Of a DNA stretch of 38,552 nt, positions 7,500 through 26,688 are shown in pieces. The DNA comes from Ignavibacteriales bacterium. Its GTDB lineage: Bacteria > Bacteroidota > Ignavibacteria > Ignavibacteriales > Ignavibacteriaceae. The position numbers were made by a program, and so were the translations under genes. The notes beneath the pieces were generated by a model. The model did not search any database and was not told the DNA's origin. It worked only from the letters and a program-made list of their open reading frames with translations. Numbering within the stretch: the stretch's first letter is position 1; every line of letters begins with the position of its first letter. Where the stretch lies: NCBI GenBank assembly GCA_003142915.1, contig PLNZ01000273.1, forward strand, positions 1-38,552, given 5' to 3'.

Positions 7500-7531
7500 A
7501 TGTCACAAAACTCCTCCAAACTCGCTATAAT
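7500..7531 (+). promoter_or_regulatory. Conserved module box: ATGTCACAAAA(n)AAACTCGCTATAAT (copy 0)
   Basis: Near-identical sequence recurs at 14886, 16354, 17465 and 18815. Contains a perfect TATAAT. The upstream TGTCAC is 19 nt away, which is non-canonical for a -35, so the box may also be a protein-binding or recombination site. Confidence 0.5.
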
Positions 7532-7565
7532 GAAAATACAGGTGAGGAAAGCAAGCTCGCCAGTC

Positions 7566-7593
7566 TTGACGAATCCCGCCTATCCTCTATAAT
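7566..7593 (+). promoter_or_regulatory. Candidate sigma70 promoter TTGACG-N16-TATAAT
   Basis: Near-consensus hexamers read directly. Followed by an untranslated stretch of about 300 nt before the 7895 ATG. Confidence 0.4.
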
Positions 7594-7894
7594 TCCAAGT
7601 TTCATTCTGCACCTTATCAAACCCATACATCTTACCCTTTGCGGCTTTACCGCCCCAAAGTGGCTTTATATGCCCTATAAGAAGCCTACGGTAATAAAAA
7701 AATCAAAACTGACATGGTTATAAAAATCTCGTCGGGAAGGACTTTTCTTTATTGCCTTTAGAATTCTTAGCATAACGACAAGCCAGTGGTAATAAAAAAA
7801 CGTACTTCACCAGTATAACTTACGCGGAGCATCTTTTTCTTGTTATCAACGGCTTTTTTTGTTCTCAATTTTTCTAATTCTTCACTCAAAATAT

Positions 7895-8191
7895 ATGAAC
7901 ATCCACAAACGCTTTCCCGTGGAGGAAATTTCTTTGGATGAACTGCGGGAGAAGGAGAATGACGAAGACGAGTCCACTTTATTCGAATATAAGTTGGGAC
8001 TCTATTGCGAGATGGATACCGATTATATTGGTATCAAGGCCGATCTCTCGCGACTCTTCAAACAAGGCTTTTTTGCCACGAATGAGAAAAGGGCGATAGT
8101 CAAAAAGCTGACCGAATGCCAGTTAACCCCCACCGAAAGGAAAGCCTTTCAGCGCGCCTTGGTTAAATTAAGAAATTTTTACCTAAACTGA
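7895..8191 (+). CDS. Hypothetical protein (possible HTH/sigma region-4-like C-terminus)
   Basis: ORF 7859-8191 with first ATG at 7895. C-terminus TPTERKAFQRALVKLRNFY loosely resembles a sigma70 region 4 ending. Its stop overlaps the next start (TGATG), implying translational coupling. Confidence 0.45.
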   Translation: MNIHKRFPVEEISLDELREKENDEDESTLFEYKLGLYCEMDTDYIGIKADLSRLFKQGFFATNEKRAIVKKLTECQLTPTERKAFQRALVKLRNFYLN

Positions 8192-8403
8192 TGCTTACTC
8201 TCGAACAAATGAAAAAACTGCTGGACGATCCGTCTATTCCCGACGAGCAGGTTTTGGAAATCCGCGACCAGCTTTATGCCTTGGCTGAAATCATTTATGA
8301 GAAATGGCAGCAGGACAAAGCGGCTGGGAAACTGCCGGGCAAAAACCCCCCGGAACTGGAAGATTGGTACAGTAGAAAAGACAGTATTACCGGCGGTAAC
8401 TGA
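8191..8403 (+). CDS. MLTLEQ-family small protein (divergent copy within the full element)
   Basis: 70 aa. MLTLEQMKKLLDDPSIPDEQVLEIRDQLYALAEIIYEKWQ aligns with the four downstream paralogs. Confidence 0.7.
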   Translation: MLTLEQMKKLLDDPSIPDEQVLEIRDQLYALAEIIYEKWQQDKAAGKLPGKNPPELEDWYSRKDSITGGN

Positions 8404-8485
8404 GGCTACTGCCGCTTAACCATTGTTGTTTTCCCGCACGGCACTTTTAACCAGTTAAAATGGCGTCCTATCCGTGTTTTATGTT

Positions 8486-8604
8486 GGGGCAAAGGGAGTC
8501 TGGGGCTTGTAAGCAGAGCATTACAAATCCCCAGCAAATAGCTTCGGACGCTCCGACAACACGAACCTATTTGCTGGGGCTTCCGCCCACAGACCCCTTG
8601 CCCC
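8486..8604. repeat. Imperfect palindrome, about 120 bp (candidate ori/oriT or structured leader)
   Basis: Perfect 13-bp arms CCCCAGCAAATAG (8529-8541) and CTATTTGCTGGGG (8567-8579). Outer arms GGGGCAAAGGGAGTCTGGGG (8486-8505) and CCCACAGACCCCTTGCCCC (8586-8604). Small CGGA-CGC-TCCG hairpin at the centre. Confidence 0.6.
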
Positions 8605-8617
8605 GTCTTCTTAAATT

Positions 8618-9241
8618 ATGGCAACAAAAAGAGACCTGATCAGGTGGTTTATCAAAGAGGTTCATTGGGCGACTCCCCGCAATGTTGCCTATTTCATGGA
8701 GGGCAGAGGAGGCAGCGACCGAAGCCGCGTCTATTCGTCGGAACTGTCTGAAATGCAGACAGTAAAAGACAGGACGCTCCGCCTCAAGCGGATCAGGAAC
8801 CAGGACGGCCACTTCGCCTATACGATGCTGTCCAAGACTTTGCCGACCTTCTTATTCAACCATGACGTTTGTGTTAGAAATATTATCGGAAAGTTTCTGC
8901 ACGACAGAGGAATGCAGGAGGTTTCTTTCGAGAAACCAGCCGACGCCTCTATCCGGCAGTACCGCTTTGAACTGGACAACGGCCACATGAGCGGCATCCA
9001 GCTCGAAGAAAAGTTGGTTAAGTATTACTCCCACCTCAACGTCCAACTCATTTTTATAATGCGGCACCGCGAATGTCCGCATCTCGAAGCCGAAAGGCTC
9101 AGGAAAGTATTTCAAATTTCAAGCAAGGTGTTTCCCCACCAGCCTAACAAGGTTTTAGGAGCCTGTTATACCAGCTACCTTGAAGACGGAACCGTTTTCA
9201 ATCGCAAAGGACAGGCGAAGCTAAAACCTTTTAACCATTAA
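8618..9241 (+). CDS. Hypothetical protein (207 aa)
   Basis: Long ORF in the GC-richer backbone, immediately after the palindrome. No motif recognised. Confidence 0.55.
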   Translation: MATKRDLIRWFIKEVHWATPRNVAYFMEGRGGSDRSRVYSSELSEMQTVKDRTLRLKRIRNQDGHFAYTMLSKTLPTFLFNHDVCVRNIIGKFLHDRGMQEVSFEKPADASIRQYRFELDNGHMSGIQLEEKLVKYYSHLNVQLIFIMRHRECPHLEAERLRKVFQISSKVFPHQPNKVLGACYTSYLEDGTVFNRKGQAKLKPFNH

Positions 9242-9265
9242 TCAAATTATTAGAAAGGAGGTTTT

Positions 9266-9457
9266 ATGTATTCACCCAAAATAAGTGAAGAGTTCATTCC
9301 CTATCTTTACCAATGGGCGAAAAGCGAAGGCGTCTCTATGACGGCCTTGGTTAATCGCATGATCAAAAATGAAATCGAAAATAATCAAAGAAAGGAGAAA
9401 AAAAACAATGACGAAAAAGATAAACGAAACCCTCTGTGGAATTCTCGAAATTTTTAA
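9266..9457 (+). CDS. Small DNA-binding-like protein (possible ribbon-helix-helix)
   Basis: 63 aa, AGGAGG 6 nt upstream. KISEEFIPYLYQWAKSEGVSMTALVNRMI has a strand-helix-helix pattern. K/E-rich tail. Confidence 0.4.
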   Translation: MYSPKISEEFIPYLYQWAKSEGVSMTALVNRMIKNEIENNQRKEKKNNDEKDKRNPLWNSRNF

Positions 9458-10196
9458 ATCCGGGCAGATACCCGAAGCCGTTTCCTATGCGGCCTTTCCA
9501 TCTTTCGATATTCCCTCTGAGCAGTGGAGTTACCTGAACCGCATTATTATGTGGCTGAACGGAACTCATGATGCCAGAGGCTACCGCCAATGGGAAGAAG
9601 TCGGGAGGCATGTTAAAAAAGGCGCAACCGCTTTTCACATTTTCGCGCCCCGGATGGTAAAGGAAAAGAAAGAAAACGGCGATGAAGATTTTAGTTTATT
9701 AGGTTTTCTGCAAGTTCCGGTCTTCTGTTATGAGGACACGGAAGGCGAACCGCTCAATTACAAGAAAACGGAGATCAACTCTTTCCACTTGATTGAGAAA
9801 GCCGAAGAATGGGGGCTGGATGTCCACGCCGTTTCCGGCAACGGCAGGTATTGGGGAGCATACAACGGGAAAGAAATAAAACTGGCCACACCCGAAGAAT
9901 CAGTCTTTTTCCATGAGTTATCGCACCACGCCCATAAACTTGTGCTTGGTGAACTCAAAGACGGTCAGGACTGGAAACAGGAAATTGTGGCTGAATTATC
10001 AGCCGAAGCCCTTTCAAGAATTTTCGGGCTTCAGTCAACGACTGGCAATTGCTACAAGTACATTGAGAGATACGCAGTTGAAGCCGGACTAACCCCCGTT
10101 ACCGCATGTCTGCAAGTTCTCAGCGATACCGAAAAGGTTTTAAAGCTGATCTTGCAGGAGGACAGGCCAGAAATCAAACAGGCGGGTAAAATGTAA
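9408..10196 (+). CDS. ArdC-like protein (ssDNA-binding N-domain plus HExxH metallopeptidase)
   Basis: ATG 9408 with AAAGGAG upstream. DARGYRQWEEVGRHVKKGATAFHIFAP resembles the ArdC/DUF1738 N-domain. FFHELSHHAH is an HExxH zincin motif. Confidence 0.5.
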   Translation: MTKKINETLCGILEIFKSGQIPEAVSYAAFPSFDIPSEQWSYLNRIIMWLNGTHDARGYRQWEEVGRHVKKGATAFHIFAPRMVKEKKENGDEDFSLLGFLQVPVFCYEDTEGEPLNYKKTEINSFHLIEKAEEWGLDVHAVSGNGRYWGAYNGKEIKLATPEESVFFHELSHHAHKLVLGELKDGQDWKQEIVAELSAEALSRIFGLQSTTGNCYKYIERYAVEAGLTPVTACLQVLSDTEKVLKLILQEDRPEIKQAGKM

Positions 10197-10200
10197 TTAA

Positions 10201-10590
10201 GCCGATATCGGTAGAACCCCAACGCAAAGCTAAGCCATCTTGGTTTACGATGGAGTCCTACCAACCAGCCTGAATCACAATGAGGGCTGAAAGGTGTTTG
10301 CTAGTAGCCCCTTTTAACGATTGAGGGCGAAAACCATTTGGTAGAAATACCGATAGGCCGATGCTGAAAAGGACTTTCGCATGGCAAACATGGAAAACGT
10401 GTTTTTGGCGAAAGAATGACACGCAATTCTAAAGGACTATGGGACTCCTGCCCTCGCAAGAGGGCTGGGAGAAGCCCATTGAGGCGAAGTCATTGCTTCT
10501 ATGCCGTAAGTCTAAGAAATTTTCATATCACAACTTATGGCATCAGGAAGGCAATGGATAAGATTGAGATAAATCTACCCACAGGAGGAA
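10201..10590 (+). ncRNA. Candidate structured RNA or replication-origin region (unclassified)
   Basis: About 390 nt non-coding, GC-richer spacer. GNRA-capped hairpin GCCCTC-GCAA-GAGGGC (10450-10465). 11-bp stem 10501-10511 with 10533-10543 (one G-U). Long-range pairing of GCCGATATCGGTA (10201-10213) with TACCGATAGGC (10348-10358). Confidence 0.3.
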
Positions 10591-10594
10591 AACT

Positions 10595-11368
10595 ATGAAC
10601 TACAAAGAAACTTTAAAAAGCATTGATACCGAAAAAGCTTTAGGCTTGATCGGCATCGAATTTGAGTCACAGGGAGCTTATGCGAAATTCGCTTGCCCTC
10701 AACCTAATTGTGACTGTAAAGCCGCGATCAAAGAATACGGCGACAAGAAAAATCTTTACTACTGCCCGAAGTGCAAATCAAGCGGCCATATCATTTCCCT
10801 GGTTATGAAAATAAAGGATATTGATTGGGATGCCGCTAATGAGTTTTTACTCAAAGCCCGCAGTAACCACGCCAAGAGGATCACAGAAGAACTCAATATC
10901 AACTATGAATTGTTTTATAACGATTTCATCAAGTCAAAGGGCATCGAAGAAGAGATGTGTAAGTTGCTTGAGATCGGAGTTCCCAAAGGCAAGACCATGC
11001 TTGCCGGAAGCGTCGCCTTTGCGGTTAGGGATACCAAAGGAATGAAAGTCGCCTATTACGGAATAAAAATGAAAGATGGCAAAGCGGTATTTCACAATAG
11101 CTTCAATCCCGAATTGTATCTTTACAATTTCTGCAACATTGATTTCAGCGAGCCAGTGCATTTCACAACTGATATGTTCCGTTGCGTCTATAACATTGAG
11201 AGTGGAAGGCAATGCGTCTGCAATTTCGGACTGCCCTATCTTTCCGATACACAGCTTGAACTTTTACATCAAGTAGAGCACATTGTTTTGCTCGTCGATG
11301 AACCACTTGTAAAACCGCTGGCAATTCAGATGGCAGAAAACAAAATGAATTACTTCCGGTTTGAATAA
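10595..11368 (+). CDS. Primase-related protein (CHC2-like zinc ribbon, degenerate Toprim-like C-half)
   Basis: 257 aa, AGGAGG upstream. FACPQPNCDCKAAIKEYGDKKNLYYCPKCKSSGHIISLV resembles the DnaG-type zinc-binding domain. The C-terminal half lacks a clear Toprim glutamate. Confidence 0.4.
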   Translation: MNYKETLKSIDTEKALGLIGIEFESQGAYAKFACPQPNCDCKAAIKEYGDKKNLYYCPKCKSSGHIISLVMKIKDIDWDAANEFLLKARSNHAKRITEELNINYELFYNDFIKSKGIEEEMCKLLEIGVPKGKTMLAGSVAFAVRDTKGMKVAYYGIKMKDGKAVFHNSFNPELYLYNFCNIDFSEPVHFTTDMFRCVYNIESGRQCVCNFGLPYLSDTQLELLHQVEHIVLLVDEPLVKPLAIQMAENKMNYFRFE

Positions 11369-11374
11369 ACAACA

Positions 11375-11410
11375 ACGGGCTGTCCTATCATGGATTAGCC
11401 CGTTTCTTTT
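11375..11410 (+). terminator. Rho-independent terminator; member of a repeated hairpin family
   Basis: ACGGGCTGTCC-TATCAT-GGATTAGCCCGT followed by TTTCTTTT. Near-identical hairpins occur at 16846-16883, 18003-18041 and 26653-26687, with a degraded copy at about 14443-14480. Confidence 0.7.
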
Positions 11411-11535
11411 GTCCTGAACAGAACTTGACCATGCAGTGATTGCCAAGACATATCGAATACTGTAATATTGTTCTTCTTATTTTTCTAATTCACACGACGA
11501 CAAACATCGACCTCATATTTATGGTTAGTTTTTCA

Positions 11536-11564
11536 TTGACATACAAAAATGATTTCCCTAAACT
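11536..11564 (+). promoter_or_regulatory. Candidate promoter TTGACA-N17-TAAACT
   Basis: Hexamers read directly, about 55 nt upstream of the 11619 ATG. Confidence 0.4.
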
Positions 11565-11618
11565 ACCTTTCGGTAAAAGCTAATTCTTGTTACCAATAAA
11601 CTTCAGGAATTGAATATC

Positions 11619-12548
11619 ATGAAAATGAGCAAAGTTTATGTGGCCTTGATGCTGGCTAGTCTTGCTTCGGGAGTTAGTGCACATGCCGATACTTACGGTA
11701 TGACGCAAACTCTTCCAAACAATCCATCTATGACGCAAACTCTTCCAAACACCAATCCATCGCCAATGCATAATCCCAGTAGTGTCCAAGTTACTGGACG
11801 CACGGGTATCGGTCATGCCAGTAGTGGTGTAAACGATGGGGGTATCGTCTATGTCAGTCCTGGACACAACTTCACTGTAGCTTCTGGCGGCAACACACCC
11901 GATGCCATGAACAGCATATTCGACAAGTCCTCTCAAACATCATGGTTTGCCTTTGCAAGTGGCATAGCATCAATCTTAGGACTAATGTTCACTTTGTACG
12001 GAACACAAATTAGAATGATACCATTTTCCTTGTATAGGTCATGCGTTTGGAATCGAGTCTTGCTAATATCCATTGGCATTGGCATCCTTGTTTTTGCAGG
12101 CATCAAATTTTACACTCAGACGGAGCCACCAGGACTCCCTCCGCTAAGCTGTCTATTTATGTTCTTGCATGGCGTGAATAATTTTTATACAGATATAGAT
12201 GGGAACAATGGAACAAACCTTTGGGCTATCATATTCGCCATAGGTGCGGTGATATCAACATGTGGTTTCTTTTACAACCCAATAAAACTATGCAAGTCAG
12301 TCCTGCGTCGGGAACATGATGCGTTGTTAGAATATAGAAAAACTCAGTTGTCATCTGTCCTTAACAGACAAAACTATGAAAACTTGAAGAGCCATGAAAA
12401 GCATCTGTATGACGATCTTAATGCTTTTCACGTTGAACTTCAAACAAGACTGATAGATACAATCTACGGGCAAAGCCTTATGCCAACTTATAGTCGCAGG
12501 ATGAAAAGCCATATTTGGCCTAACAAGCATATCGACGAGACGGACTAA
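11619..12548 (+). CDS. Secreted/multi-pass membrane protein with short tandem repeat
   Basis: Signal-peptide-like MKMSKVYVALMLASLASGVSAHA. Perfect 22-nt direct repeat (11700-11721 and 11730-11751) encoding MTQTLPN twice. Several hydrophobic spans. AGGAA lies 9 nt upstream of ATG 11619. Confidence 0.6.
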   Translation: MKMSKVYVALMLASLASGVSAHADTYGMTQTLPNNPSMTQTLPNTNPSPMHNPSSVQVTGRTGIGHASSGVNDGGIVYVSPGHNFTVASGGNTPDAMNSIFDKSSQTSWFAFASGIASILGLMFTLYGTQIRMIPFSLYRSCVWNRVLLISIGIGILVFAGIKFYTQTEPPGLPPLSCLFMFLHGVNNFYTDIDGNNGTNLWAIIFAIGAVISTCGFFYNPIKLCKSVLRREHDALLEYRKTQLSSVLNRQNYENLKSHEKHLYDDLNAFHVELQTRLIDTIYGQSLMPTYSRRMKSHIWPNKHIDETD

Positions 12549-12637
12549 CGCACAGCCTACCACACGTAACATTGATCAAAATATTTTTATTCGCATTTCG
12601 CTTTGCTCAAAAATCTATTTTATCATATAATTAATTT

Positions 12638-12750
12638 ACTACCCAAATCAAATTAATCTCCGATTTTTTTATCAACATCGTTGTCCTAAACGGACAGTCT
12701 GCCAATGATGTTGATCTTCGGAGAAACTGATTTGGGTAGTCAGACTGTCC
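12638..12750. repeat. Nested inverted repeats upstream of the recombinase gene (candidate att or regulatory site)
   Basis: A 12638-12650 pairs with A' 12728-12740 (13 bp). B 12657-12663 pairs with B' 12718-12724. C 12671-12679 pairs with C' 12707-12715. D GGACAGTCTG (12692-12701, in the loop) pairs with D' CAGACTGTCC (12741-12750), giving mutually exclusive folds. Confidence 0.6.
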
Positions 12751-12775
12751 TTTTAAGTTGTTAAAAAACAAAAAT

Positions 12776-14362
12776 ATGAAAGGAATAATTTATGTAAGAG
12801 TATCAAGCGAAGAACAAGTCAAAGGCACATCCTTGGAAAATCAGGATGAGCTTTGCCGTGCCTATTGTAAAAATAAGGGCATTGAGGTTTTAGGTATTTA
12901 TCGCGAAGAAGGAGCCTCAGCTAAAACAGCCCAGCGAGCCGAGTTTTTACGATCCATTGAATTCTGCCGGAAGAACAAAGGCAAGGTTGATGCTTTTGTA
13001 GTCTATAAAGTGGATCGGTTTGCCAGGAACACCGAAGATCATTTTTTCGTTAGAAAAATGCTAATTGAATACGGAGTGACTTTGCATTCCGTAACTGAAC
13101 CCATCGGCAACAATCCGGCAGAGAAATTTATTGAAACTGTTTTAGCCGGAAGCGCCGAATTTGACAATGCCGTCAGAGCTCAAAGAAGCGTGAGTGGAAT
13201 GATAGCCAAAATCAATCAGGGCATAACTCCTTTCAGACCGCCTATTGGCTATGAATGCCAACATGCAAGAAAAAGAGGCGAAAAGAAACTTGTAGCCGAT
13301 AAACCGGATACGCAAATATTCCCTATCATTCAAAAGGCATTACAAGAATTTTCCAAAGGAATATATACGCAAGTAGATATGATCCGGCTTTTAGATAAGC
13401 TGGGCTTAAGCAAAATCAGAGGCCAAAAAACAAGTCCGCAGTTAGTCAGTAAAATTTTCGTTAAGTATCTTAAATATTATGCTGGCATCATCGTGAATCC
13501 CTGGACTAACGAAGAAGTTCAAGGCATACACGAGTCGATGATAACCAAAGAAGAATATTTTAAAATACATTTTATCTTATCAGGAAAATCAAACAGAGTT
13601 AAAAGAATCAGGAAAAATCCTAATTTCCTATTGAGGCAAACTGTTAAATGCGGATGTTGCGGACAGCCATTAACTGGAAGCTGTTCAACTGGTAGAAACG
13701 AGAAATATTATTACTACCATTGTTTCAATAAAGAATGTTCAATGTACGGCAAGGCTATAAGCAAACAAAAACTGGAAGATGATTTTGTCGAATATCTGAA
13801 AGAGATTACACCAAAAAAAGATTTCTTGGATGTATTCAAGGCGGTTGTTTTGAGTTTGTGGAACAGACAAGATTTAGACTTAAAAACAGAAGCCCAAAAC
13901 TATGAAAAGCAATTGGCGGTATTAGATGGAAAGCGGAAAAGAATTTTTGAAATGCGGGAAGAAGGATCGTACACACCCGAAGAATTTAAAGAGCGAAAAG
14001 AAGAAATTGAAAATCAAATTATGGCAATAAAAATATCCTTGAATGAAACAAGGATTGATCAGTTTGATATTGAAGGCGTATTATCTTACGCAAATAATTT
14101 TATTGCCGATCTTGGTAGACAATGGCTTGATTTAGCCACTTCTCATTTGCGGTTCCAAAAAATGGTATTTCCGGAAGGAATTTCATATAAAAGAAATGAA
14201 GGATTTGGAACCGCCAAATTGGGGCTTATTTACGAACTTAACAGGACTTGTGGGACTGAAAAATCCCTTCTGGTGGTCTTTGCGTTCACCCATTGGAACC
14301 AGCTTTTGGCCGAATTGCGAGAATGGGAGAAAATAAAACAAGGTTTTGAACTTGTTTTATAG
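12776..14362 (+). CDS. Large serine recombinase
   Basis: Resolvase-type N-domain with catalytic-serine motif GIIYVRVSSEEQ and VDRFARN. Central recombinase domain. Cys-rich zinc ribbon CGCCGQPLTGSC...YYYYHCFNKEC. Coiled-coil-like segment. ATG 12776 preferred over TTG 12758. The last ~92 nt (14271-14362) are repeated downstream. Confidence 0.9.
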   Translation: MKGIIYVRVSSEEQVKGTSLENQDELCRAYCKNKGIEVLGIYREEGASAKTAQRAEFLRSIEFCRKNKGKVDAFVVYKVDRFARNTEDHFFVRKMLIEYGVTLHSVTEPIGNNPAEKFIETVLAGSAEFDNAVRAQRSVSGMIAKINQGITPFRPPIGYECQHARKRGEKKLVADKPDTQIFPIIQKALQEFSKGIYTQVDMIRLLDKLGLSKIRGQKTSPQLVSKIFVKYLKYYAGIIVNPWTNEEVQGIHESMITKEEYFKIHFILSGKSNRVKRIRKNPNFLLRQTVKCGCCGQPLTGSCSTGRNEKYYYYHCFNKECSMYGKAISKQKLEDDFVEYLKEITPKKDFLDVFKAVVLSLWNRQDLDLKTEAQNYEKQLAVLDGKRKRIFEMREEGSYTPEEFKERKEEIENQIMAIKISLNETRIDQFDIEGVLSYANNFIADLGRQWLDLATSHLRFQKMVFPEGISYKRNEGFGTAKLGLIYELNRTCGTEKSLLVVFAFTHWNQLLAELREWEKIKQGFELVL

Positions 14363-14390
14363 GAAAAATCCACAAATCAAGAACTGCTTT

Positions 14391-14419
14391 ATTATATAAT
14401 GCCAAAACTAAATCGGCAA
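14391..14419 (-). promoter_or_regulatory. Conserved antisense promoter in the tail (TTGCCG-N17-TATAAT on the minus strand)
   Basis: The reverse complement reads TTGCCG, 17 nt, TATAAT. Both hexamers are invariant while the spacer varies in the tail copies after 15320, 16765, 17904 and 26569. It fires toward the recombinase 3-prime end or fragment. Confidence 0.45.
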
Positions 14420-14508
14420 GAGAGGAATCAGTTTAAACAAAAACGGGCTTCCCTATAATGAACTATCCCGTTTCGCTTTTCTTGTTTATATTTAATAATT
14501 TCGGCGAT

Positions 14509-14796
14509 TTATTTAAATTCACCACTTGCATATCTTGGGTAGTCTTTGTCAAATAATTTTTTCAATTTTTCTTTAGCTAAAATTTGGTTTATTTCAGGAA
14601 ATGCCTCTATCGTTACTGATTTTACTTCTTCGTTAATTCGTTCCCATCCACTTATAATTTCAGAGAATGATGACTCGAACATGGTCATATCTTGTTCTCC
14701 CCTCGTGATGCGTCCTAGTAATCTCATTATCTTGTCTGCGTTTTCTAATTTCTCGTCTACCTTTTCACTATGTGTCGTTTTTTCTAGCATATTCAT
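14509..14796 (-). CDS. Hypothetical protein (cargo 1, 95 aa)
   Basis: Unique ORF between the tail and the next module, divergent from the MLTLEQ promoter. The overlapping plus-strand ORF is judged a shadow. Confidence 0.5.
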   Translation of the reverse strand: MNMLEKTTHSEKVDEKLENADKIMRLLGRITRGEQDMTMFESSFSEIISGWERINEEVKSVTIEAFPEINQILAKEKLKKLFDKDYPRYASGEFK

Positions 14797-14885
14797 ATTT
14801 TTGATTTAATTAATTATCAGAATTTCTTATGTATTCATTTTAACATAGGATAGCGAATGCGCAAATTAATAGATATTATTCAAAA

Positions 14886-15380
14886 ATGTCACAAAATCCA
14901 CCCAAACTCGCTATAATAAAAATAGAGGTTGAATAATAATTAATAAAATAATCCATGCTAACCCTAGAACAAACTAGAGAATCATTAAATGATCCTACTT
15001 TGTCAGATGAAGAGGTCTTGGAGATTAGAGACCAGCTTTACTCGCTGGCTGAGATCATATTTGAGCAATGGCAAATAGACATAGCAAAAGAAAAGAAGCG
15101 TAGGCTTGAAGAAAAGACTCAATCAGAGAACGTGCCTACTAACGGCCCTGAATATCCCCGCTAGTTAGGGGGTCCTATCAAGATAAAATACAAAAAAAGA
15201 AGTCTCATAAAGAGGCTCCTCTGTTTCGTGGTGGTCTTTGCGTTCGCCCATTGGAACCAGATTTTGACTGAATTGCGCGAATGGGAGAAAATAAAACAAG
15301 AGTTTAGTCTTGTTTTATAGGAAAAATCCACAAATCAAGAACTGTTTTATTATACAATGTCAAAACTAAATCGGCAAGAG
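14886..15380 (+). repeat. Conserved module copy 1
   Basis: Box at 14886-14917, MLTLEQ ORF at 14955-15164. Recombinase 3-prime fragment at 15228-15320 encodes VVFAFAHWNQILTELREWEKIKQEFSLVL-stop. Tail runs to AAATCGGCAAGAG. Confidence 0.85.
14955..15164 (+). CDS. MLTLEQ-family small protein
   Basis: 69 aa. Against the 16423 copy, the first 40 codons show 8 synonymous and 2 non-synonymous differences, including Ser TCG versus AGT. Confidence 0.8.
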   Translation: MLTLEQTRESLNDPTLSDEEVLEIRDQLYSLAEIIFEQWQIDIAKEKKRRLEEKTQSENVPTNGPEYPR

Positions 15381-19260: not shown

Positions 19261-19694
19261 AGCAAGAGAGGCCCGGTTAGAGCTGAATCGTACTGTTTTA
19301 TTCGCAAAACCATTTCAAAAACGCAATATAACCAAAACCAACCAAAGCTTAAACACGCCTTATTTTTTATTACTGTTTGATGTGATGCTGGAAACGGCGG
19401 TAAAAAAGGCGAAGATGTCTATCGCCTGACATGAGTTGGACATCATCGAGAGCCAGATGAAGGAGTAGGCATTCTTCAGTTTAACTCAGAGGGTGTCCCG
19501 GACGGGATGAATCTACGAACTGGGAACTGTCCTTGCCTATCAGCCCGACACGGCCAAAATCAAGCGCTAAGCAATCAAAAGACCAGTCCCTTGATGGAAA
19601 GCCAAATAGCCAGCAGACTATGTGGCATGGATAAGACGGGACTAATTGTAAGATTAACTTGACAGTTTAGCTGTCTATATGATATGATAGTTTT

Positions 19695-20132
19695 ATGTCA
19701 TCGTCCAAACACATCGAAACAGCAGCTACCGAACTGACGCTTGCCTTGGGTTCCCTCATGAGGCGCGTTCGGGCGACAGCTCCATCAGAATTGAATGAGA
19801 TGTCATGGACTCAAAAGTCCGTCATCGTTCGCCTTGATAAAGACGGCCCGGCAACCGCTGCAGACCTTGCGCGTGCCGAGGGAGTAAAGTCGCAGTCCAT
19901 GGGAACGGCCCTTGCAACGCTTGAAAAAATGGGGCTGGTCGAGCGCAAGGCACACCCCACTGACGGTCGCCGGATGAACATTGTTTTGACCGCCAAAGGT
20001 AAGACCATGCGCAAAAATACGCGAGAGGCCAAGCATACCTGGTTGGCTCACGCTATAGAAAAACTCGACAAGAAAGAGCAGGAAAAGCTGTTCGCGGCGG
20101 GTGAAGTCATAAAAAAACTTGTCGATCTATGA
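19695..20132 (+). CDS. MarR-family transcriptional regulator
   Basis: 145 aa. Winged-helix region TQKSVIVRLDKDGPATAADLARAEGVKSQSMGTALATLEKMGLVERKAHPTDGRR is typical of MarR. TTGACA-N18-TATGAT ends 6 nt before the ATG, so the mRNA may be leaderless. The segment is GC-richer. Confidence 0.8.
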   Translation: MSSSKHIETAATELTLALGSLMRRVRATAPSELNEMSWTQKSVIVRLDKDGPATAADLARAEGVKSQSMGTALATLEKMGLVERKAHPTDGRRMNIVLTAKGKTMRKNTREAKHTWLAHAIEKLDKKEQEKLFAAGEVIKKLVDL

Positions 20133-20220
20133 GGATTTCTTTTTCTCATGCGTGGCGCGCATTACCACTACGGATGCGTTTATCTCTGAACAGGAATAAC
20201 CAATTTAGGAGGAACTCAAT

Positions 20221-20565
20221 ATGAACTGGGCAAACTATATCTCTTATTTTTTTGGAGGAGCTTTCCTCGCCAACGCCATCCCGCATATTGTCAGCGGAAT
20301 GACGGGGCGTCCTTTTCAAAGCCCCTTTGCCAAGCCACCGGGTCAGGGACTCTCTTCTTCGACCGTAAACGTGCTTTGGGGTGTCCTCAACTTCGCGTTT
20401 TCTTATGTCCTGATCTGTCAGGTCGGAGAGTTCAGCTTACGCTCTACGACCCATGTGGCGGTCCTGGGATTGGGTTTTCTTCTTATGGGCTTGATGAGTG
20501 CGCGCAACTTCGGTCGTTTCCACGGCGGCAACTCCCCCAAGGATTCAAATGCCAGGTCCCGTTGA
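20221..20565 (+). CDS. Small integral membrane protein (114 aa)
   Basis: AGGAGG upstream and about 3 hydrophobic spans. No family recognised. Confidence 0.55.
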   Translation: MNWANYISYFFGGAFLANAIPHIVSGMTGRPFQSPFAKPPGQGLSSSTVNVLWGVLNFAFSYVLICQVGEFSLRSTTHVAVLGLGFLLMGLMSARNFGRFHGGNSPKDSNARSR

Positions 20566-20587
20566 AGCCCATCGTGACTCCGATCGG

Positions 20588-20725
20588 CTCGATCCATTGA
20601 TTTGGAAGATCAGTTCCATTGCAGTGCCCGGTTCTTTTCTGTCCCAACTGGATGCTACCGTCGTCAATGTTTCCCTTTCCAGCCTTGCCGTCACGTTCCA
20701 CGGCAGCCTTTCGGCGATTCAACAA
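20588..20725 (+). pseudogene. Remnant of an MFS (DHA2/EmrB-QacA-like) transporter N-terminus
   Basis: LDPLIWKISSIAVPGSFLSQLDATVVNVSLSSLA matches the LDxT(I/V)VNV(A/S)LP signature of the TM1 region of DHA2 exporters. Only about 45 codons remain and the frame then decays. Confidence 0.45.
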
Positions 20726-20872
20726 CCAGCATCAGCGACACGTTATCCATCCGAGCCGTATGGCGGTCGAGGTGTTAAACTCACCAATTAGGAAGTGGCA
20801 CCCGGTAGCTTCCAGCAAGGTCATACCCAAAATCATAATATAAAAAAAATTATAACTTATAACCGATACTGA

Positions 20873-22642
20873 ATGTTTAAACTTTTAAAATACTTAAAAC
20901 CATACACTCTTCAGTTGATCATGCTAATCGCTTTGGTTTTTGGTACAGTCGTGGCAACCCTTCAATTGCCGGATTACATGGCTACGATTATTGACAAAGG
21001 TATTGTTAATTCGAATACTAGTGTAATTTTTCATAGCGGACTTTTAATGCTTCTGGTCGCTTTTGGTGGCGGTATTTGTACCATCGGAATCGGTTTTTTA
21101 TCTTCAAAAATTGCAACCGGATTTTGCCGGGATATTCGAAACAAGGTATTTTCCCGTGTAGAAAGTTTTTCATTGGTTGAATTTAATAAATTTTCAACCG
21201 CTTCTTTAATAACTCGTTCGACTAACGATGTTCAACAAATCCAAACAGTAATGGTTTTGCTTCTTAGAATAGTCCTTCAAGCTCCAATTATGGGAATTTG
21301 GGCGATTTTCAAAGCATATAATTTGGCATCATCACTTTCATGGATAATGGCTCTGGCTGTTGCTGTTGTGCTTGGAGTGATTTTTGTAATGTTTGCCGTT
21401 GCCATACCAAAATTCAAGATTTTACAAAAACTGGTGGATCGACTCAATCTTGTAACCAGGGAAAATTTGACCGGCTTGCGTGTCATTCGCGCCTTTAATA
21501 ATGAAAAAATTGAACAGGAAAAATTTGAAAAAGCCAATGTTGATTTAACAGAAGCCAATCTTTTTGTAAACCGATTGATGGTGGTGATACAACCGGCTAT
21601 GATGTTAATTTTAAACTTGGCCTCAGTACTAATCGTTTGGATGGGATCGCACCTAATTAACTCCGGTAATTTGGGAATCGGCAATATGATTGCGTTTATG
21701 CAATATACAATGCAAGTGATCATGGCCTTCTTGATAATTTCACTTGCTTTCATTATGGTTCCGCGCGCTTCGGTTTCAGCTGAAAGAGTCAATGAAGTGA
21801 TTGATACAGAGCCGATTATTAAAGATCCTAAAAAACCAATTTCTACTAAGAATCTCCACGGCGGGATGGTTGAATTTAACAATGTCACTTTTTGTTATCC
21901 CGGTGCCGATACGCCAGTTTTAAAAAATATTTCTTTTAAAGCAAATTCTGGAGAGACAACTGCCATTATCGGCTCAACTGGTTCGGGTAAGTCAACTTTG
22001 ATAAATTTAATTCCGCGATTTTACGATATAAATTCAGGCGAAATTATTATTGACGGAGTTGATGTGCGCAAATATAAACTTGAAGACCTATATGCCAAAA
22101 TTGGCTATGTACCGCAAAAGGGAGTTTTGTTTTCCGGAACAGTGGAATCAAATATCAAATACGGTGCGCCAAATGCGACCAACGATGAAGTAAAAAAATT
22201 CTCTGAGATTTCACAAGCGGAAGAATTCATAAACAATCTTGACGGTAAATTTAATGCTTCAATTGCTGAAGGCGGATCTAATATTTCCGGCGGTCAAAAG
22301 CAACGACTTGCGATTGCGCGAGCCATTGCCAGAAAACCGGAGATTTATATTTTTGACGACAGTTTCTCATCGCTTGATTTTAAAACGGATGCGATGCTTC
22401 GCCAGGCATTGAAGAGCGAAACCGAACATAAAACAGTGTTAATTGTTGCACAGAGAATTTCCACTATTTTATCGGCAGAAAAAATTATCGTTTTGGACGA
22501 GGGTAAGATTGTGGGTGTTGGAACTCATCAGCAATTATTCAAAGATTGCGGCATTTATCGTGAAATCGCTTACTCACAACTTTCGGAAAACGAATTGAAA
22601 TCTTATCAAATTAACATTGACCGTGAGAAAGCCAAAAATTAA
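20873..22642 (+). CDS. ABC exporter half-transporter (TMD-NBD), degenerate-site subunit
   Basis: Six-TM N-half. Walker A GSTGSGKST, signature ISGGQKQR. Walker B IYIFDD is followed by Asp instead of the catalytic Glu. Confidence 0.9.
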   Translation: MFKLLKYLKPYTLQLIMLIALVFGTVVATLQLPDYMATIIDKGIVNSNTSVIFHSGLLMLLVAFGGGICTIGIGFLSSKIATGFCRDIRNKVFSRVESFSLVEFNKFSTASLITRSTNDVQQIQTVMVLLLRIVLQAPIMGIWAIFKAYNLASSLSWIMALAVAVVLGVIFVMFAVAIPKFKILQKLVDRLNLVTRENLTGLRVIRAFNNEKIEQEKFEKANVDLTEANLFVNRLMVVIQPAMMLILNLASVLIVWMGSHLINSGNLGIGNMIAFMQYTMQVIMAFLIISLAFIMVPRASVSAERVNEVIDTEPIIKDPKKPISTKNLHGGMVEFNNVTFCYPGADTPVLKNISFKANSGETTAIIGSTGSGKSTLINLIPRFYDINSGEIIIDGVDVRKYKLEDLYAKIGYVPQKGVLFSGTVESNIKYGAPNATNDEVKKFSEISQAEEFINNLDGKFNASIAEGGSNISGGQKQRLAIARAIARKPEIYIFDDSFSSLDFKTDAMLRQALKSETEHKTVLIVAQRISTILSAEKIIVLDEGKIVGVGTHQQLFKDCGIYREIAYSQLSENELKSYQINIDREKAKN

Positions 22643-22646
22643 AAAC

Positions 22647-24518
22647 ATGAGCGAAAATCCTAAATTACAATCAACAAATATTCGAGCAAGTCAACCAAAA
22701 TCATCGCTGCCAATCGGTCCGGGTAGATCCGGGCGTGAAATCGGGCTGATTGAAAAGCCGAAAAACTTCTCGGCAACAATGAAAAAACTGGTTTCCTATA
22801 CCAGTCCATTTTGGGTTTCAATAATTTTTGTCCTTTTTTTTGCTATCGCCAGCACGGTTTTTGCTGTTGTAAGTCCTAAAATTCTCGGCAATATGACCAA
22901 TCAAGTTGTCAACGGTTTTATCGCTAAGGCAATCAATTTTGACAAGCTGAAGGATTTCGCTATCGAACTTTCGATTCTTTATATTCTGAGCTCGATTTTC
23001 AGTTACATCCAAGGATGGATTATGACCGGCGTATCGCAGAAGATAACTTATCGATTCCGCCGCGACATTTCCGAAAAAATCAACCGTCTCCCTTTGGCAT
23101 ATTTTGACAAAAGAACTTTCGGCGAGGTTTTATCGCGAGTGACAAATGATGTTGATACTATGAGTCAGACCCTAAATCAAAACTTGACTCAAATTGTCAC
23201 CTCAGTCACGATGATCATCGGGATCCTGATTATGATGTTTTCAATCTCATGGCAAATGACTCTCGTTTCGCTAATACTGGTTCCACTTAGTTTTATTTTA
23301 ATGGCCGTAATCGTTAAAAAATCACAGCACTATTTCAAAGAACAACAGGACTCCCTTGGTGAAATCAATGGTCATATCGAAGAGATGTATGCTGGCCATA
23401 ACGTGATGAGAGTTTTTAATGGAGAACAACGATCAATCCAGAAGTTTGAAAAAATTAATACAAAACTTTATTGCAGTGCTTGGATGTCACAATTTTTATC
23501 CGGGTTAATGATGCCGATCACGACCTTCGTCGGCAATTTGGGTTTTGTGGGAGTCTCGGTGCTTGGTGGATGGTTGGTCATTCAAGGCAAAATACAGATC
23601 GGTGATATTCAGGCATTTATTCAATACGTCAACCAGTTCAATCAGCCAATCGTTCAATCGGCAAGTATCGCCAATGTGATGCAGTCAACGGCCGCTGCAG
23701 CTGAACGTGTGTTTGAATTTTTGGATGAGAAAGAAGAAGCTGTCGAAGATTCAAAAAAAGTTGTGCCAAAAAATATGAATGGGAAAGTGGACTTTGATAA
23801 AGTAGTATTTGGTTATGACCCAGATAAAATCATTATTTGGGACTTTAATGCCAACATTAAACCAGGACAAAGAATTGCTATTGTCGGTCCAACTGGCGCA
23901 GGCAAGACTACAATCGTAAATCTATTAATGCGATTTTATGATGTTAATGTGGGCGCAATCAAAATTGACGGAGTTGACACTCGTAACATGAAACGAGTAG
24001 AGGTCAGAAAATTATTTGGTATGGTATTACAAGACACATGGTTATTTAATGGAACAATCCGTGAAAACATCGCTTACGGCAAACCGGATGCAACTGATGA
24101 GGAGATAGTCGCTGCATCCCAAGCTGCTCATGCAGATCATTTTATTCACGCCTTGCCTCAGGGTTATGATTTAAAATTGAATGAAGAAGCTGATAATATT
24201 TCTCAAGGCGAGAAGCAATTGTTAACAATAGCTAGGGCGATGCTGATCAAGGCTCCAATGTTAATATTAGACGAGGCAACGAGTTCAGTTGATACACGTA
24301 CCGAACTTTTAATCCAAAAAGCGATGGAAAACTTAATGAAAGGTAAAACAAGTTTTGTTATTGCCCACCGTCTTTCAACAATTCGCGATGCCGATTTGAT
24401 TTTAGTAATGAAGGATGGAAGTATTATCGAGCAAGGAAATCATAAAGAATTGCTAGCTGAAAAAGGTTTTTATGAATCATTATACAACAGTCAATTTGTT
24501 GCTAGTTCGGTAGAATAA
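22647..24518 (+). CDS. ABC exporter half-transporter (TMD-NBD), consensus-site subunit
   Basis: Walker A GPTGAGKTT, Walker B MLILDEATS, deviant signature ISQGEKQ. ATG 22647 lies 4 nt after the upstream stop. Confidence 0.9.
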   Translation: MSENPKLQSTNIRASQPKSSLPIGPGRSGREIGLIEKPKNFSATMKKLVSYTSPFWVSIIFVLFFAIASTVFAVVSPKILGNMTNQVVNGFIAKAINFDKLKDFAIELSILYILSSIFSYIQGWIMTGVSQKITYRFRRDISEKINRLPLAYFDKRTFGEVLSRVTNDVDTMSQTLNQNLTQIVTSVTMIIGILIMMFSISWQMTLVSLILVPLSFILMAVIVKKSQHYFKEQQDSLGEINGHIEEMYAGHNVMRVFNGEQRSIQKFEKINTKLYCSAWMSQFLSGLMMPITTFVGNLGFVGVSVLGGWLVIQGKIQIGDIQAFIQYVNQFNQPIVQSASIANVMQSTAAAAERVFEFLDEKEEAVEDSKKVVPKNMNGKVDFDKVVFGYDPDKIIIWDFNANIKPGQRIAIVGPTGAGKTTIVNLLMRFYDVNVGAIKIDGVDTRNMKRVEVRKLFGMVLQDTWLFNGTIRENIAYGKPDATDEEIVAASQAAHADHFIHALPQGYDLKLNEEADNISQGEKQLLTIARAMLIKAPMLILDEATSSVDTRTELLIQKAMENLMKGKTSFVIAHRLSTIRDADLILVMKDGSIIEQGNHKELLAEKGFYESLYNSQFVASSVE

Positions 24519-24647
24519 AATAACCCCATACTTTTAATTTGTTTCTGAACTAAGTCGAATAATTCTTTAGTAATTAACGCCCCATGTGCCACCGAGGTGT
24601 TGATCTCACCACTAAATAGACGGGAAATTTCTTAACAAAATTAAATT

Positions 24648-25056
24648 ATGACTCTTAAAATATTTGAACTTATAAGCATTATTCTGTCGGATCTGGTCGG
24701 CGGTATGTACTGGGGGCCGTGGCTAGGCTTTGAGTCGGTCGTTTAAAACATTTAAGCCGGAGGTGTTTTTGGATATCGTAGATCGGATGAATAAAAACAT
24801 GGGGCCACTCATGACCATTTTGACGCCGGTTGCCCTATTGTCGATAGTTCCGGTTCTATTTATTTCATACAATCAGCGACCTTTAACTTTCTATTTGTAC
24901 TTAATGGGATTGGTTTTGTTTATCCTTGCCCTGGTTGTAACAGTGATTATTGAAGTTCCTATAGTCAAACAAATCGGTACATGGACGGTTTCGACATTAC
25001 CGCACAACTGGCACACATCAGACGCATTGGTTGGAGAAAAATTATGCTTGAATTGA
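24648..25056 (+). pseudogene. Small multi-TM membrane protein gene (DUF1772-like, tentative), frameshifted and 3-prime truncated
   Basis: ATG 24648 reads MTLKIFELISIILSDLVGGMYWGPWLG and then stops. Removing one T from the TTT at 24729-24731 fuses it to LSRSFKTFKPEVFLDIV... (the 24730 ORF). The 3-prime end runs into the module fragment at 25050. Confidence 0.5.
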
Positions 25057-25107
25057 AACAGTGGAAAGAATTGAGGGAGAGTTTTTTGCTTAATGCATAG
25101 GAAAAAT
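25050..25107 (+). repeat. Partial module copy 5 (type-2 recombinase 3-prime fragment only)
   Basis: GAATTGAAACAGTGGAAAGAATTGAGGGAGAGTTTTTTGCTTAATGCATAGGAAAAA matches 19203-19259 with 3 mismatches (..ELKQWKELRESFLLNA-stop). Confidence 0.8.
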
Positions 25108-25219
25108 TCTTTTTTAATTATTTTCTCCCATACATTATATGTTATGTGTTTGTGTTCCGTTTGGGTTTATGTTTATGGCAAGACGTGAGAGAGTGTTTTT
25201 TTATTTGATTTCTAAAAAA

Positions 25220-26314
25220 TTATCCTTTTGAAACCTTTCTATATTTCGTGCTTCTACCAAGCCCGATTCTTTCTATTTTTTTCAGTTTAAGTAATACTTC
25301 CAATGCCTGTTTGACGGTCGGTCGCGGAATTTTTGTTTCACGGGCAATTTCTCCTGTTCCAGCTGTATTAACATGTTCAAAAAAATCCCAGACTATAAGT
25401 TGTTTTTCTGATAATATTTTCTCTATATTTTCTTTCGACAAAAATTCAATCGCCGTTTTGGATTGCTGCAATAAAATTGTAAAAAAGAAATTGAGCCACG
25501 GAGCAACATCTTCCTTTTTAGTGTGAAAAGTCTTCTGGCTGCGCCTGAGCGCGAGATAATACTCTGCCTTGTTTTCTTCTATGAGTTTTTCGTGGGAAAC
25601 ATAAGGCATATAAAGATAGCCGCTTTGCAACAATAGCAAGTTTGTCAGAATCCTGGAAATTCTACCGTTGCCATCCTGAAAAGGATGAATTTTTAAAAAT
25701 TCAACTAAAAAATTGGCAATCACCAGCAACGGATGATATTTTTTTTGAGCTAACAATAGATTGGTTGATTCTACAAGTTCCATCATTTCTTTCGATGTAA
25801 GATGAGGAGGAGTTGGATTAAAAATTATTCCAACTTCCTTGCCTTGATTGTCATAGGCCACAACTTTATTTTCGCCGAACTTGTATTCACCCAGATGTCT
25901 TTGGTCTTTGTCGGAATATTTTAGAAGCTCCTTATGAAAATGCTTGATTGAGCTTTCACTAAATTTCAAATTTTTCCATGAATTAAAAATGTTTTCCAAA
26001 AGTTCATAATAACCTCTAACTTCTTGTTTGTCTCGATCAGCAAATTTTTGAATTTTTATGCCGCGCATCACTTTCTCAATATCTTCATCTGAAAGCTGCG
26101 CCCCTTCAATGCGAGTGGAGGCACCAGTCGAGGTTATTAAAACAGAACGTTTAAGACGTCCGAGAACTTGCGGATTTAGCTGAGCGCCTGTTATCCAACT
26201 TCCTTTTAATTCATCAATTTTGGCAATCTTTGAAATTATTTCCGTTGGAATTATATTGAGCCGTTTTGAAAATTTCTTTTCAATAACACTGCTTTTTTTC
26301 AATTTTTTGTTCAT
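25220..26314 (-). CDS. Fic-family protein (AMPylase/toxin-type) with C-terminal wHTH
   Basis: 364 aa with the canonical Fic motif HPFQDGNGRISR. Confidence 0.9.
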   Translation of the reverse strand: MNKKLKKSSVIEKKFSKRLNIIPTEIISKIAKIDELKGSWITGAQLNPQVLGRLKRSVLITSTGASTRIEGAQLSDEDIEKVMRGIKIQKFADRDKQEVRGYYELLENIFNSWKNLKFSESSIKHFHKELLKYSDKDQRHLGEYKFGENKVVAYDNQGKEVGIIFNPTPPHLTSKEMMELVESTNLLLAQKKYHPLLVIANFLVEFLKIHPFQDGNGRISRILTNLLLLQSGYLYMPYVSHEKLIEENKAEYYLALRRSQKTFHTKKEDVAPWLNFFFTILLQQSKTAIEFLSKENIEKILSEKQLIVWDFFEHVNTAGTGEIARETKIPRPTVKQALEVLLKLKKIERIGLGRSTKYRKVSKG

Positions 26315-26478
26315 AATAATTGGATATAATTAACTATATCCAATTATATCCAATTAAACTATTGCCGTCAAATATGGTAATAATAAAAAGTAAAGTAAAG
26401 GGTCAGTAAAGAAATAAATATTCTAAATATTTTTAAAGGCAATAGAAAAAAGAGGCTTATGTAAGCCATAAAACGATT

Positions 26479-26688
26479 GGTGGGCTTTGCGTTCACCCAT
26501 TGGAACCAGCTTTTGGCTGAATTGCGCGAATGGGAGAAAATAAAACAAGGTTTTGAACTTGTTTTATAGGAAAAATCCACAAATCAAGAACTGTTTTATT
26601 ATATACTGTCAAAATAAAATCGGCAAGGAAGCACTGATTTAAACAAATAAAGACGGGCTGTCCTATCGTGAATCAGTCCGTTTCTTTA
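26479..26688 (+). repeat. Partial module copy 6 (type-1 recombinase fragment plus full tail)
   Basis: Fragment 26479-26569 encodes VGFAFTHWNQLLAELREWEKIKQGFELVL-stop. The tail carries the antisense promoter hexamers and the hairpin at 26653-26687. It has no box and no MLTLEQ ORF. Confidence 0.85.

Follow-up and report, generated by a model that had tools for sequence, protein, structure and literature searches.

A tandem array of recombinase-less units at a putative crossover point within a large serine recombinase gene of an Ignavibacteriales bacterium

Introduction

Staphylococcal cassette chromosome (SCC) elements, among them SCCmec, use the large serine recombinases (LSRs) CcrAB and CcrC, form tandem arrays at the 3' end of rlmH, and include recombinase-less pseudo-elements with unrelated cargo. 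In streptococci, where integrative and conjugative elements (ICEs), integrative and mobilizable elements (IMEs) and cis-mobilizable elements (CIMEs) occur, non-autonomous elements flanked by attachment (att) sites accumulate beside an autonomous one; in the classic cases a tyrosine recombinase acts at a host gene's 3' end. Here we describe an array of similar plan in a 38,552-nucleotide stretch of DNA from an Ignavibacteriales bacterium (contig PLNZ01000273.1), referred to below as the window, in which four small units, each with its own cargo gene and a short open reading frame (ORF) called MLTLEQ, lie between the body of an LSR gene and a second version of that gene's 3' end. The array was probably built by site-specific recombination catalyzed by the LSR at a crossover point, the sequence TGGTGG at 14271, within the recombinase's own ORF; four recombinase-less mini-elements would in this way have come to separate the recombinase body from the 3' end it originally had.

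Judged by their plan, SCC composite islands and streptococcal ICE/CIME accretion, and not integrons, appear to be the closest known analogues. A preliminary description, made from the sequence alone, had named no described system as a match for the array; this was too strong, since tandem accretion with recombinase-less members is known from both. With SCC the array shares a serine recombinase and repeated integration at one site, leading to tandem arrays that include recombinase-less members and unrelated cargo, and here too every member is bounded by a copy of a repeated gene 3' end or att site. The repeated piece is the host rlmH 3' end in SCC, whereas here it is the recombinase's own 3' end, or else the target is a tRNA gene; the units also carry a conserved small gene (MLTLEQ), and the likeness to SCC is one of plan. 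With ICE/CIME accretion the array shares non-autonomous, att-flanked members in tandem with an autonomous element at one site, but a serine recombinase takes the place of a tyrosine recombinase acting at a host-gene 3' end, and no conjugation or mobilization genes were seen in the units.

Integrons rely on a tyrosine recombinase and on folded single-strand attC sites, and their promoterless, co-oriented cassettes are read from Pc. The term "integron analogue", applied earlier to the array, fits its outcome only, namely small units lined up beside a recombinase gene, with recombination ends that are conserved and a single cargo gene that varies; each defining integron feature that was tested is absent. 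The system's sole recombinase belongs to the serine class and is not of the IntI type, the units are bounded by TGGTGG with a coding-derived arm and a terminator hairpin instead of attC (with no Rfam match), and the cargo lies on the opposite strand, each unit having promoter-like sites of its own as judged by consensus only.

In mycobacteriophages such as BPs, attP lies in the repressor gene and integration by a tyrosine integrase changes the C-terminus of the product, with degradation tags involved, while in SSV1 integration splits the tyrosine integrase gene into two large parts. The present recombinases resemble these in having attP apparently in coding sequence, so that integration would change the C-terminus, and many of their native tails have an LAA end like that of the phage tags; they differ in that a serine recombinase would swap only its last 30 residues. 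The tycheposons of Prochlorococcus have site-specific integrases that are mostly tyrosine and in a few cases large serine enzymes, and they share with the present family replication genes carried with cargo, tRNA targets, tandem junctions and island building (10.1101/2020.12.28.424599). An att site inside the recombinase gene and MLTLEQ-type mini-units do not figure in the passages of that source considered here.

The crossover point of the recombinase family

Two features of the window are needed at the outset.

12776-14362, plus strand: LSR gene (528 aa); codons 1-498 are the element's, and the last 30 codons (14271-14362) come from the P' arm of the neighboring unit
14271-14276: putative crossover core O, TGGTGG, recurring at 15229, 16674, 17813, 19162 and 26478; placed by the homology edge and joined to tRNA 3' ends in relatives

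The recombinase has an N-terminal resolvase domain (PF00239, 1.3e-31, residues 10-155) and a match to the C-terminal zinc ribbon Zn_ribbon_recom (PF13408), and its residues 245-418 align to the recombinase/zinc-ribbon region of the A118 integrase structure 4kis. Its relatives comprise 826 database proteins at E<=1e-20; few are named by their source, and these belong mostly to the Patescibacteria (candidate phyla radiation), with some from Omnitrophota and Smithella (Syntrophales-like). A 37-member alignment revealed that the conserved body of the family stops at the motif KSxLV, corresponding to nucleotide 14270, where the repeated piece of the window starts. Two types of C-terminus follow this motif. 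The first is a native tail of the form xxxxWNQIxxELxxWxxL..., often with an LAA end, and the second, for example DPxGLEPxTSSLQMRRSTN, is the antisense translation of the 3' half of a tRNA.

These junctions were examined in 80 related loci from species-representative genomes, 64 of which hold a complete recombinase ORF. An antisense tRNA gene overlaps the 3' end of the ORF in 41 of the 64 (Ala 24, Glu 7, Met 3, plus others); the native tail is kept in 15 and another ending is found in 8. Eight of the 41 tRNA-joined loci also hold an orphan native 3' end, which sits at the opposite end of the element, 2.6-9.6 kb upstream and on the same strand. The two element ends have only a 6-9-nt core (e.g. 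TGGTG, GTGGAC) in common in the seven readable pairs, and in tRNA-joined relatives the core lies at the CCA end of the tRNA, with a terminator hairpin as the outer left arm. Serine integrases use sites with a short core and dissimilar arms, and this is the architecture seen in the seven relatives, which have no long direct repeats.

Because the tRNA junctions can be read with this established knowledge of serine integrases, we conclude that the attP crossover would fall within the recombinase ORF, 30 codons ahead of the stop and 92 nt short of the ORF's end, and that integration would move those 30 codons (P') to the opposite end of the element while joining the ORF to a tRNA gene. By this comparison the homology break at 14271 appears to be the crossover point of the recombinase family, and the repeated "recombinase 3' end plus tail" of the window appears to be the right arm, P', of attP. 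An attP inside coding sequence, on which an integration-dependent change of C-terminus depends, was thus found in this family. Native tails often end in LAA or similar, resembling ssrA-type degradation tags, and the tRNA-encoded replacement tails do not. The change of the last 30 residues may alter recombinase activity.

Organization of the array

Module edges were defined by a repeat search and multiple alignments of the window. The search revealed a 300-nt block repeated at 14881, 16349, 17460 and 18810 (81-93% identity), copies of the recombinase-3'/tail block at 14271, 15229, 16674, 17813 and 26478, a 76-nt piece common to 19184 and 25031, and a 44-nt box at 7500, 14886, 16354, 17465 and 18815 (86-95% identity). 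The alignments confirmed the four full modules proposed earlier (14886-15380, 16354-16883, 17465-18041 and 18815-19260), and the box was found to open each of them as well as the 7-kb element at 7500. Every module contains an intact MLTLEQ ORF (14955-15164, 16423-16611, 17534-17755, 18884-19105) and repeats, in frame, the final 30 codons and the stop codon of the recombinase gene. Two partial modules, also described earlier, are present, with coordinates better given as 25031-25106 (followed by another tail to ~25188) and 26478-26688.

Both kinds of repeat have sharp left edges in the alignments, at ATGTCACAAAA in the box and at TGGTGG, the equivalent of 14271, in every recombinase-3' copy. 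A weight matrix built from the P' copies detected only six strong sites in the window, at 14271, 15229, 16674, 17813, 19162 and 26478. The true units run from TGGTGG to TGGTGG; what had been called a module therefore straddles two of them, taking in the right end of the first and the left end of the second. The motif ATG(T/C)CA(C/A)AAA, previously offered as a candidate crossover core, is not supported: in the box, as ATGTCACAAAA, it forms the -35 edge of a plus-strand promoter, and in the tail it lies within a minus-strand promoter. The candidate ATGTCA(C)AAAA coincides with promoter hexamers on both strands, and the homology edges there mark the limits of conserved promoters and not crossovers.

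The autonomous element and the units that follow it are arranged as listed; each unit is given on the plus strand, with the strand of its cargo gene in parentheses.

7500-14270, plus strand: core of the autonomous element (E), from Pfam and PHROG matches; homology to the relatives L007 and L009 begins exactly at the box. Contains the promoter box 7500-7543, orf110, MLTLEQ_E 8191-8403, orf207, orf312 and the recombinase body
9369-10196, plus strand: ArdC-N-like gene of E (Pfam/PHROG)
10595-11368, plus strand: CHC2 primase-like gene of E (Pfam/PHROG)
14271-15228, plus strand: unit U0; P' and tail, cargo 14509-14796 (minus, 95 aa), box 14886, MLTLEQ 14955-15164, hairpin 15201-15217
15229-16673, plus strand: unit U1; P' and tail, cargo 15480-16085 (minus, 201 aa), box 16354, MLTLEQ 16423-16611, hairpin 16641-16667
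16674-17812, plus strand: unit U2; P' and tail, terminator hairpin 16831-16880, cargo 16914-17357 (minus, 147 aa), box 17465, MLTLEQ 17534-17755, hairpin 17783-17806
17813-19161, plus strand: unit U3; P' and tail, hairpin 17988-18037, cargo 18127-18804 (minus, 225 aa), box 18815, MLTLEQ 18884-19105, hairpin 19132-19155
19162-25030, plus strand: type-2 P' (19162-19259), then MarR, two ABC transporter genes and small ORFs (Pfam; likeness of P' to relatives)
25031-26477, plus strand: degraded type-2 P' (25031-25106), tail2 to ~25188, Fic gene of the SoFic type at 25220-26314 (minus), and a hairpin that precedes the following core
26478-26688, plus strand: last P', tail and terminator hairpin

The type-2 P' at 19162 is probably the element's own original 3' end, to judge from the relatives considered below. 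The MarR/ABC and SoFic stretches are probably older, degraded units, and the low-GC radical-SAM operon that follows 26688 may be the cargo of the last (oldest) unit. No two cargo proteins match one another. The Fic gene (25220-26314, minus strand) matches the SoFic model of PADLOC at 1.4e-43, an anti-phage model, and at least one passenger is therefore a defense gene. A family of hairpins, AAACGGGCTnTCCTATnnTGnAnnAGCCCGTTT, occurs in the window at 11360-11409, 14428-14477, 16831-16880, 17988-18037 and 26638-26687, and in another genome at L116 ~5437-5470; it is placed after the primase-like gene and, in several units, between tail and cargo, and is probably a two-way terminator.

Repeats of this kind invite the suspicion of misassembly, and MLTLEQ genes of the module type do often lie on contigs of <2 kb, some scaffolds containing N gaps. 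The identical array was found, however, in at least 24 contigs from four sources (JGI, ENA, NCBI and Logan assemblies) made with several assemblers, including a contig of 2.08 Mb, and for this reason the repeats are not an assembly artefact; the window sequence itself is contained in JGI contig Ga0334841_000868. Identity among the window modules is 80-94%, the copies thus differing by 6-20%, and an artefactual origin, which the preliminary description had named as a possible refutation, is extremely unlikely.

An apparent insertion at the crossover in close relatives

The closest relatives of the recombinase are those at loci L007 (93%), L008 and L123 (91-92%), L122 (80%) and L012 (77%). All five fuse the recombinase body straight to a type-2 P', which in L007, L008, L122 and L123 is 88-98% identical to window 19162-19259; the P' of L012 is 76% identical to 19162-19259 and is closer, at 88%, to the second type-2 copy (25025-25178). 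The tail present at 25107-25188 of the window follows P' in each of these loci except L007. A four-way alignment revealed that L008 consists of the window left of 14271 joined to the window right of 19161. Because the closest relatives join the recombinase body directly to a P' of the 19162 type, window 14271-19161 is best read as a 4,891-bp insertion at the crossover, comprising exactly four units, flanked by TGGTGG and located inside the recombinase gene.

Presence/absence polymorphism between relatives had been asked for in the preliminary description, and the four-unit insertion supplies it, at the predicted site, against all five loci. The earlier proposal of serial capture at the recombinase 3' end consequently stands in substance, although the unit boundaries and the core attached to it do not. 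A scan of metagenomes with the P' pattern, which is not a population census, returned two loci only, both usable as empty sites. Among viral contigs neither the box pattern nor the junction pattern found a match.

Related units at tRNA genes in other genomes

About 40 distinct MLTLEQ proteins of the module type were found in metagenomes. Read from the crossover, elements of the family are organized alike: P' comes first, then a short tail, then variable and mostly minus-strand cargo, and last a plus-strand core containing MLTLEQ, replication-type genes and the recombinase body. The window units follow this plan with the core shrunk to the promoter box, MLTLEQ and the terminator hairpin.

In the three contexts examined (L101, L116 and L097), modules of the same type stand beside different cargo, a point that the preliminary description had raised for checking. 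L101 begins with P', followed by minus-strand cargo, the box, MLTLEQ and a hairpin that abuts the 3' end of a tRNA-Lys gene with nothing in between; a second, recombinase-deleted unit on the left retains ~30 nt of the recombinase left arm. L116 contains three units, with cargo of 417, 256 and 355 aa, between tRNA-Ile and tRNA-Ala; the last hairpin is joined to tRNA-Ala, and no recombinase lies within 10 kb. L097 has a gene neighborhood like that of L116 with other content, in which one mini-unit with different cargo lies beside a full element carrying a different serine recombinase at tRNA-Ala. Between genomes module identity is 71-87%, and module M1 of the window is nearest to the L097 copy (87%), above its neighbors in the window.

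The occurrence of the same units at tRNA genes, with no recombinase nearby, weighs against a strict integron-type platform, in which an attI-like acceptor in the recombinase gene would be the sole place of cassette capture and the platform would drive expression. The position of the array directly at the recombinase 3' end and the conserved ends and variable single-gene cargo of the units agree with such a platform, but, in addition to the serine enzyme and the absence of attC-type sites, the cargo genes point away from the recombinase and promoter-like sites lie within each unit. We regard this explanation as quite unlikely.

The family plan also weighs against transposition resembling that of miniature inverted-repeat transposable elements, by which internally deleted copies of the 7-kb element would have entered gaps of an existing minus-strand gene cluster. 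The units do lack the recombinase, as the earlier suggestion of non-autonomous derivatives held, and all four cargo genes are on the minus strand; minus-strand cargo is, however, the general plan of the whole family. The view that a module is simply the two termini of the element joined by deletion also fails on three counts. The MLTLEQ region of the modules is only 67-73% identical to that of the element and represents a separate MLTLEQ subtype, box and ORF are separated in the element by a further 617 nt (7544-8160), and the 3' part of the module ORF and the hairpin are without counterpart in the element. The units form a separate lineage, their ends (TGGTGGTCTTTGCG... and ...CCTCTGTTTCG) do not make up inverted repeats, no target duplications were visible on direct reading of the alignments, and all copies lie at one specific kind of site and are not scattered. 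Transposition of this kind is accordingly highly improbable.

Other observations concern the spread of these sequences. P' plus tail at L101 8853-9006 is 90-91% identical to window 15229-15380 and 16674-16825; the L101 contigs are named Moranbacteria by one source, and the 2.08-Mb host contig of the window holds metabolism genes of syntroph type. This similarity suggests either recent transfer between very different hosts or wrong binning. In L009 (~11730-11760) a terminator hairpin followed by TAGTGGACCCC lies ~150 nt past the tail, and L010 reads TATGGCCCAC at ~4790-4815. This site looks like a further junction with a tRNA-end remnant, that is, a unit without cargo or MLTLEQ.

A possible mechanism and the evidence against it

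What comparison of the loci brings out, namely the position of the crossover, the structure of the units, the insertion at the crossover and the recombinase-less units at tRNA sites, may be accounted for by the following mechanism, in which the units' mobility is what we infer. The 6.8-kb autonomous element (7500-14270) would have a recombinase body that reads into P' at 14271, and each element of the family, once recombined, would carry P' at its left end. The terminator hairpin of a unit would then serve as the left arm of the next junction, and mini-elements would move as circles, with the recombinase supplied in trans. The site of a unit would be a target-type arm joined to P'. LSRs normally recombine attP with attB only, and either the pairing rules differ here from strict attP x attB, or the unit mimics the tRNA target.

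Several observations weigh against site-specific assembly of this kind. The left arm of a unit, a hairpin followed by a T-rich stretch, is unlike the recombinase-coding attP arm and resembles the terminator arms of tRNA sites, so that the pairing required would be non-canonical for LSRs. The P' plus cargo expected upstream of the element's box was not found within ~19.5 kb. Look-ups with the recombinase, Fic and flanking genes gave an identical array order in all contigs of the sampled population, and the sole structural variant, the contig L004 of a metagenome-assembled genome (MAG; GCA_003140615.1), lacks 15381-16825 through a crossover in a 54-nt identical stretch of the tail and not at TGGTGG. 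This deletion appears to be the product of homologous recombination or of misassembly. Finally, copies are more alike within one array than between arrays, and local duplication or gene conversion therefore contributes.

L004 also lacks 64 nt in the primase-like gene (10726-10789), and its fourth MLTLEQ ORF has lost 91 nt from the beginning (18854-18944); these are either true strain differences or MAG errors. The WOOD18 scaffolds L113-L115 were considered as structural variants and set aside, since the new join in L115 crosses an N gap and L113 and L114 are strain-level variants of the same array.

The greater likeness of copies within the array, the variant's crossover in the 54-nt stretch and the invariance of the array in the sampled population would all be expected of a local segmental duplication, in which unequal homologous recombination multiplied one module in place and other DNA later took the place of what lay between the copies, with no site-specific step. 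This explanation leaves unexplained why the copies start at a common nucleotide that is joined to tRNA 3' ends in relatives, why the space separating the recombinase body from its own P' is filled exactly by four units, and why the cargo genes are unrelated; moreover, M1 is nearer to a module of another genome than to its neighbors. We consider duplication alone unlikely, and site-specific recombination at the crossover remains the probable origin of the array.

A more elaborate proposal combines these features and is offered tentatively. The system would be one of gene capture by a serine recombinase, in which recombinase-less circles act as portable mimics of tRNA targets, each presenting a terminator hairpin, a core and a pseudo-RNA gene that is driven by a promoter and runs antisense to the 3' end of the recombinase gene, and are captured at the crossover in the recombinase gene or at tRNA genes. 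The swap of the C-terminal helix at each event would report site occupancy and set the direction of the reaction, and MLTLEQ and the antisense RNA would be the units' regulators.

MLTLEQ, promoters and RNA features

In ~55 of the 80 related loci a single copy of MLTLEQ lies upstream of the recombinase gene, often as its immediate neighbor. The ratio of nonsynonymous to synonymous substitution rates (dN/dS) is 0.1-0.3 for MLTLEQ ORFs, indicating purifying selection, and mostly ~0.7-0.9, from small counts, for orphan P' pieces. Pfam, PHROGs and a PDB profile search gave no match for the protein (62-73 aa), for which AlphaFold models one short and one long helix (predicted local distance difference test score 82). 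It is a candidate directionality factor or regulator. In L097 a 49-aa ORF (17042-17191) with the MLTLEQ-like motif LSDEQIEQIKNTLYCICENII precedes the serine recombinase at tRNA-Ala (17203-18700), which belongs to a different subfamily; the small partner gene may therefore predate the present family.

A consensus scan detected promoter-like sequences in the tails:

14391-14419, minus strand: promoter-like TTGCCG-17-TATAAT (consensus scan only); also at 15349-15377, 16794-16822 and 17933-17961

In a scan of the same kind the unit hairpins scored as terminators, three on the minus strand and that of U0 on the plus strand. The minus-strand tail promoters and the unit hairpins together predict a transcript of ~150 nt, antisense to P' and convergent with MLTLEQ, that would end at the hairpin. 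A hairpin over the recombinase stop codon is conserved, with 2 compensatory pairs. The antisense strand of P' was not recognized as a known RNA gene by ARAGORN or Rfam (E<=1), and apart from this one hairpin its consensus fold is weak (-9.5 kcal/mol).

Within the element the non-coding DNA that separates MLTLEQ_E from orf207 is strongly conserved and contains, at 8526-8582, a long inverted repeat, CCCCAGCAAATAG...CTATTTGCTGGGG. L007 alters both arms together (CCCCAGATATTAG...CTAATATCTGGGG), and the pairing is therefore kept; the repeat may be a replication origin or a structured RNA. A pseudo-P' at 8423, after MLTLEQ_E, raised the idea that mini-units originate by alternative excision, but its score is 13.7, where real sites reach 47-50, and neither L007 nor L009 conserves it; alternative excision is therefore kept as an idea only.

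Genomic surroundings

The whole window is low in GC (32-42%, against 49% in the flanking chromosome), and in the 2.08-Mb contig it lies between copies of the insertion sequences IS21 and IS256, with conjugation genes nearby; the element may therefore belong to a larger island, at whose right end no tRNA was found. The ~19.5-kb stretch left of the box contains genes for a BglII-like nuclease, a HATPase_c_3 protein, IS21, a 1583-aa nSTAND3 protein and an epimerase, together with a DeoR gene. Its part within the window, 259-7335 (32% GC), encodes the BglII-like nuclease (weak Pfam match), a weak match to mad8 of the MADS defense system, the HATPase_c_3 protein and two large unknown proteins. This left flank, with IS21 and the nSTAND3 protein further left, looks like a defense island. 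To the right of the array, 26893-37329 (34% GC) is an operon with two radical-SAM proteins (one SPASM), PqqD, a glycosyltransferase, PHP, HD and asparagine synthase. A PIN-domain toxin is encoded beyond it, at 37605-38229 on the minus strand, and has a small partner upstream; the window ends just short of an IS256-family transposase.

Implications

A literature search of incomplete coverage found no account of this recombinase family, of a crossover inside the recombinase gene or of MLTLEQ-type mini-units. The junctions described here would supply attachment sites for a large, little-studied family of serine recombinases, enzymes of a sort sought as genome-engineering tools. The variable C-termini and tRNA overlaps of these recombinases would be junction products and not annotation errors, and the last 30 residues, which would depend on the site to which the gene is joined, present a testable switch. 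For very small genomes, the units may provide a route by which single, unrelated genes are gathered at tRNA loci.

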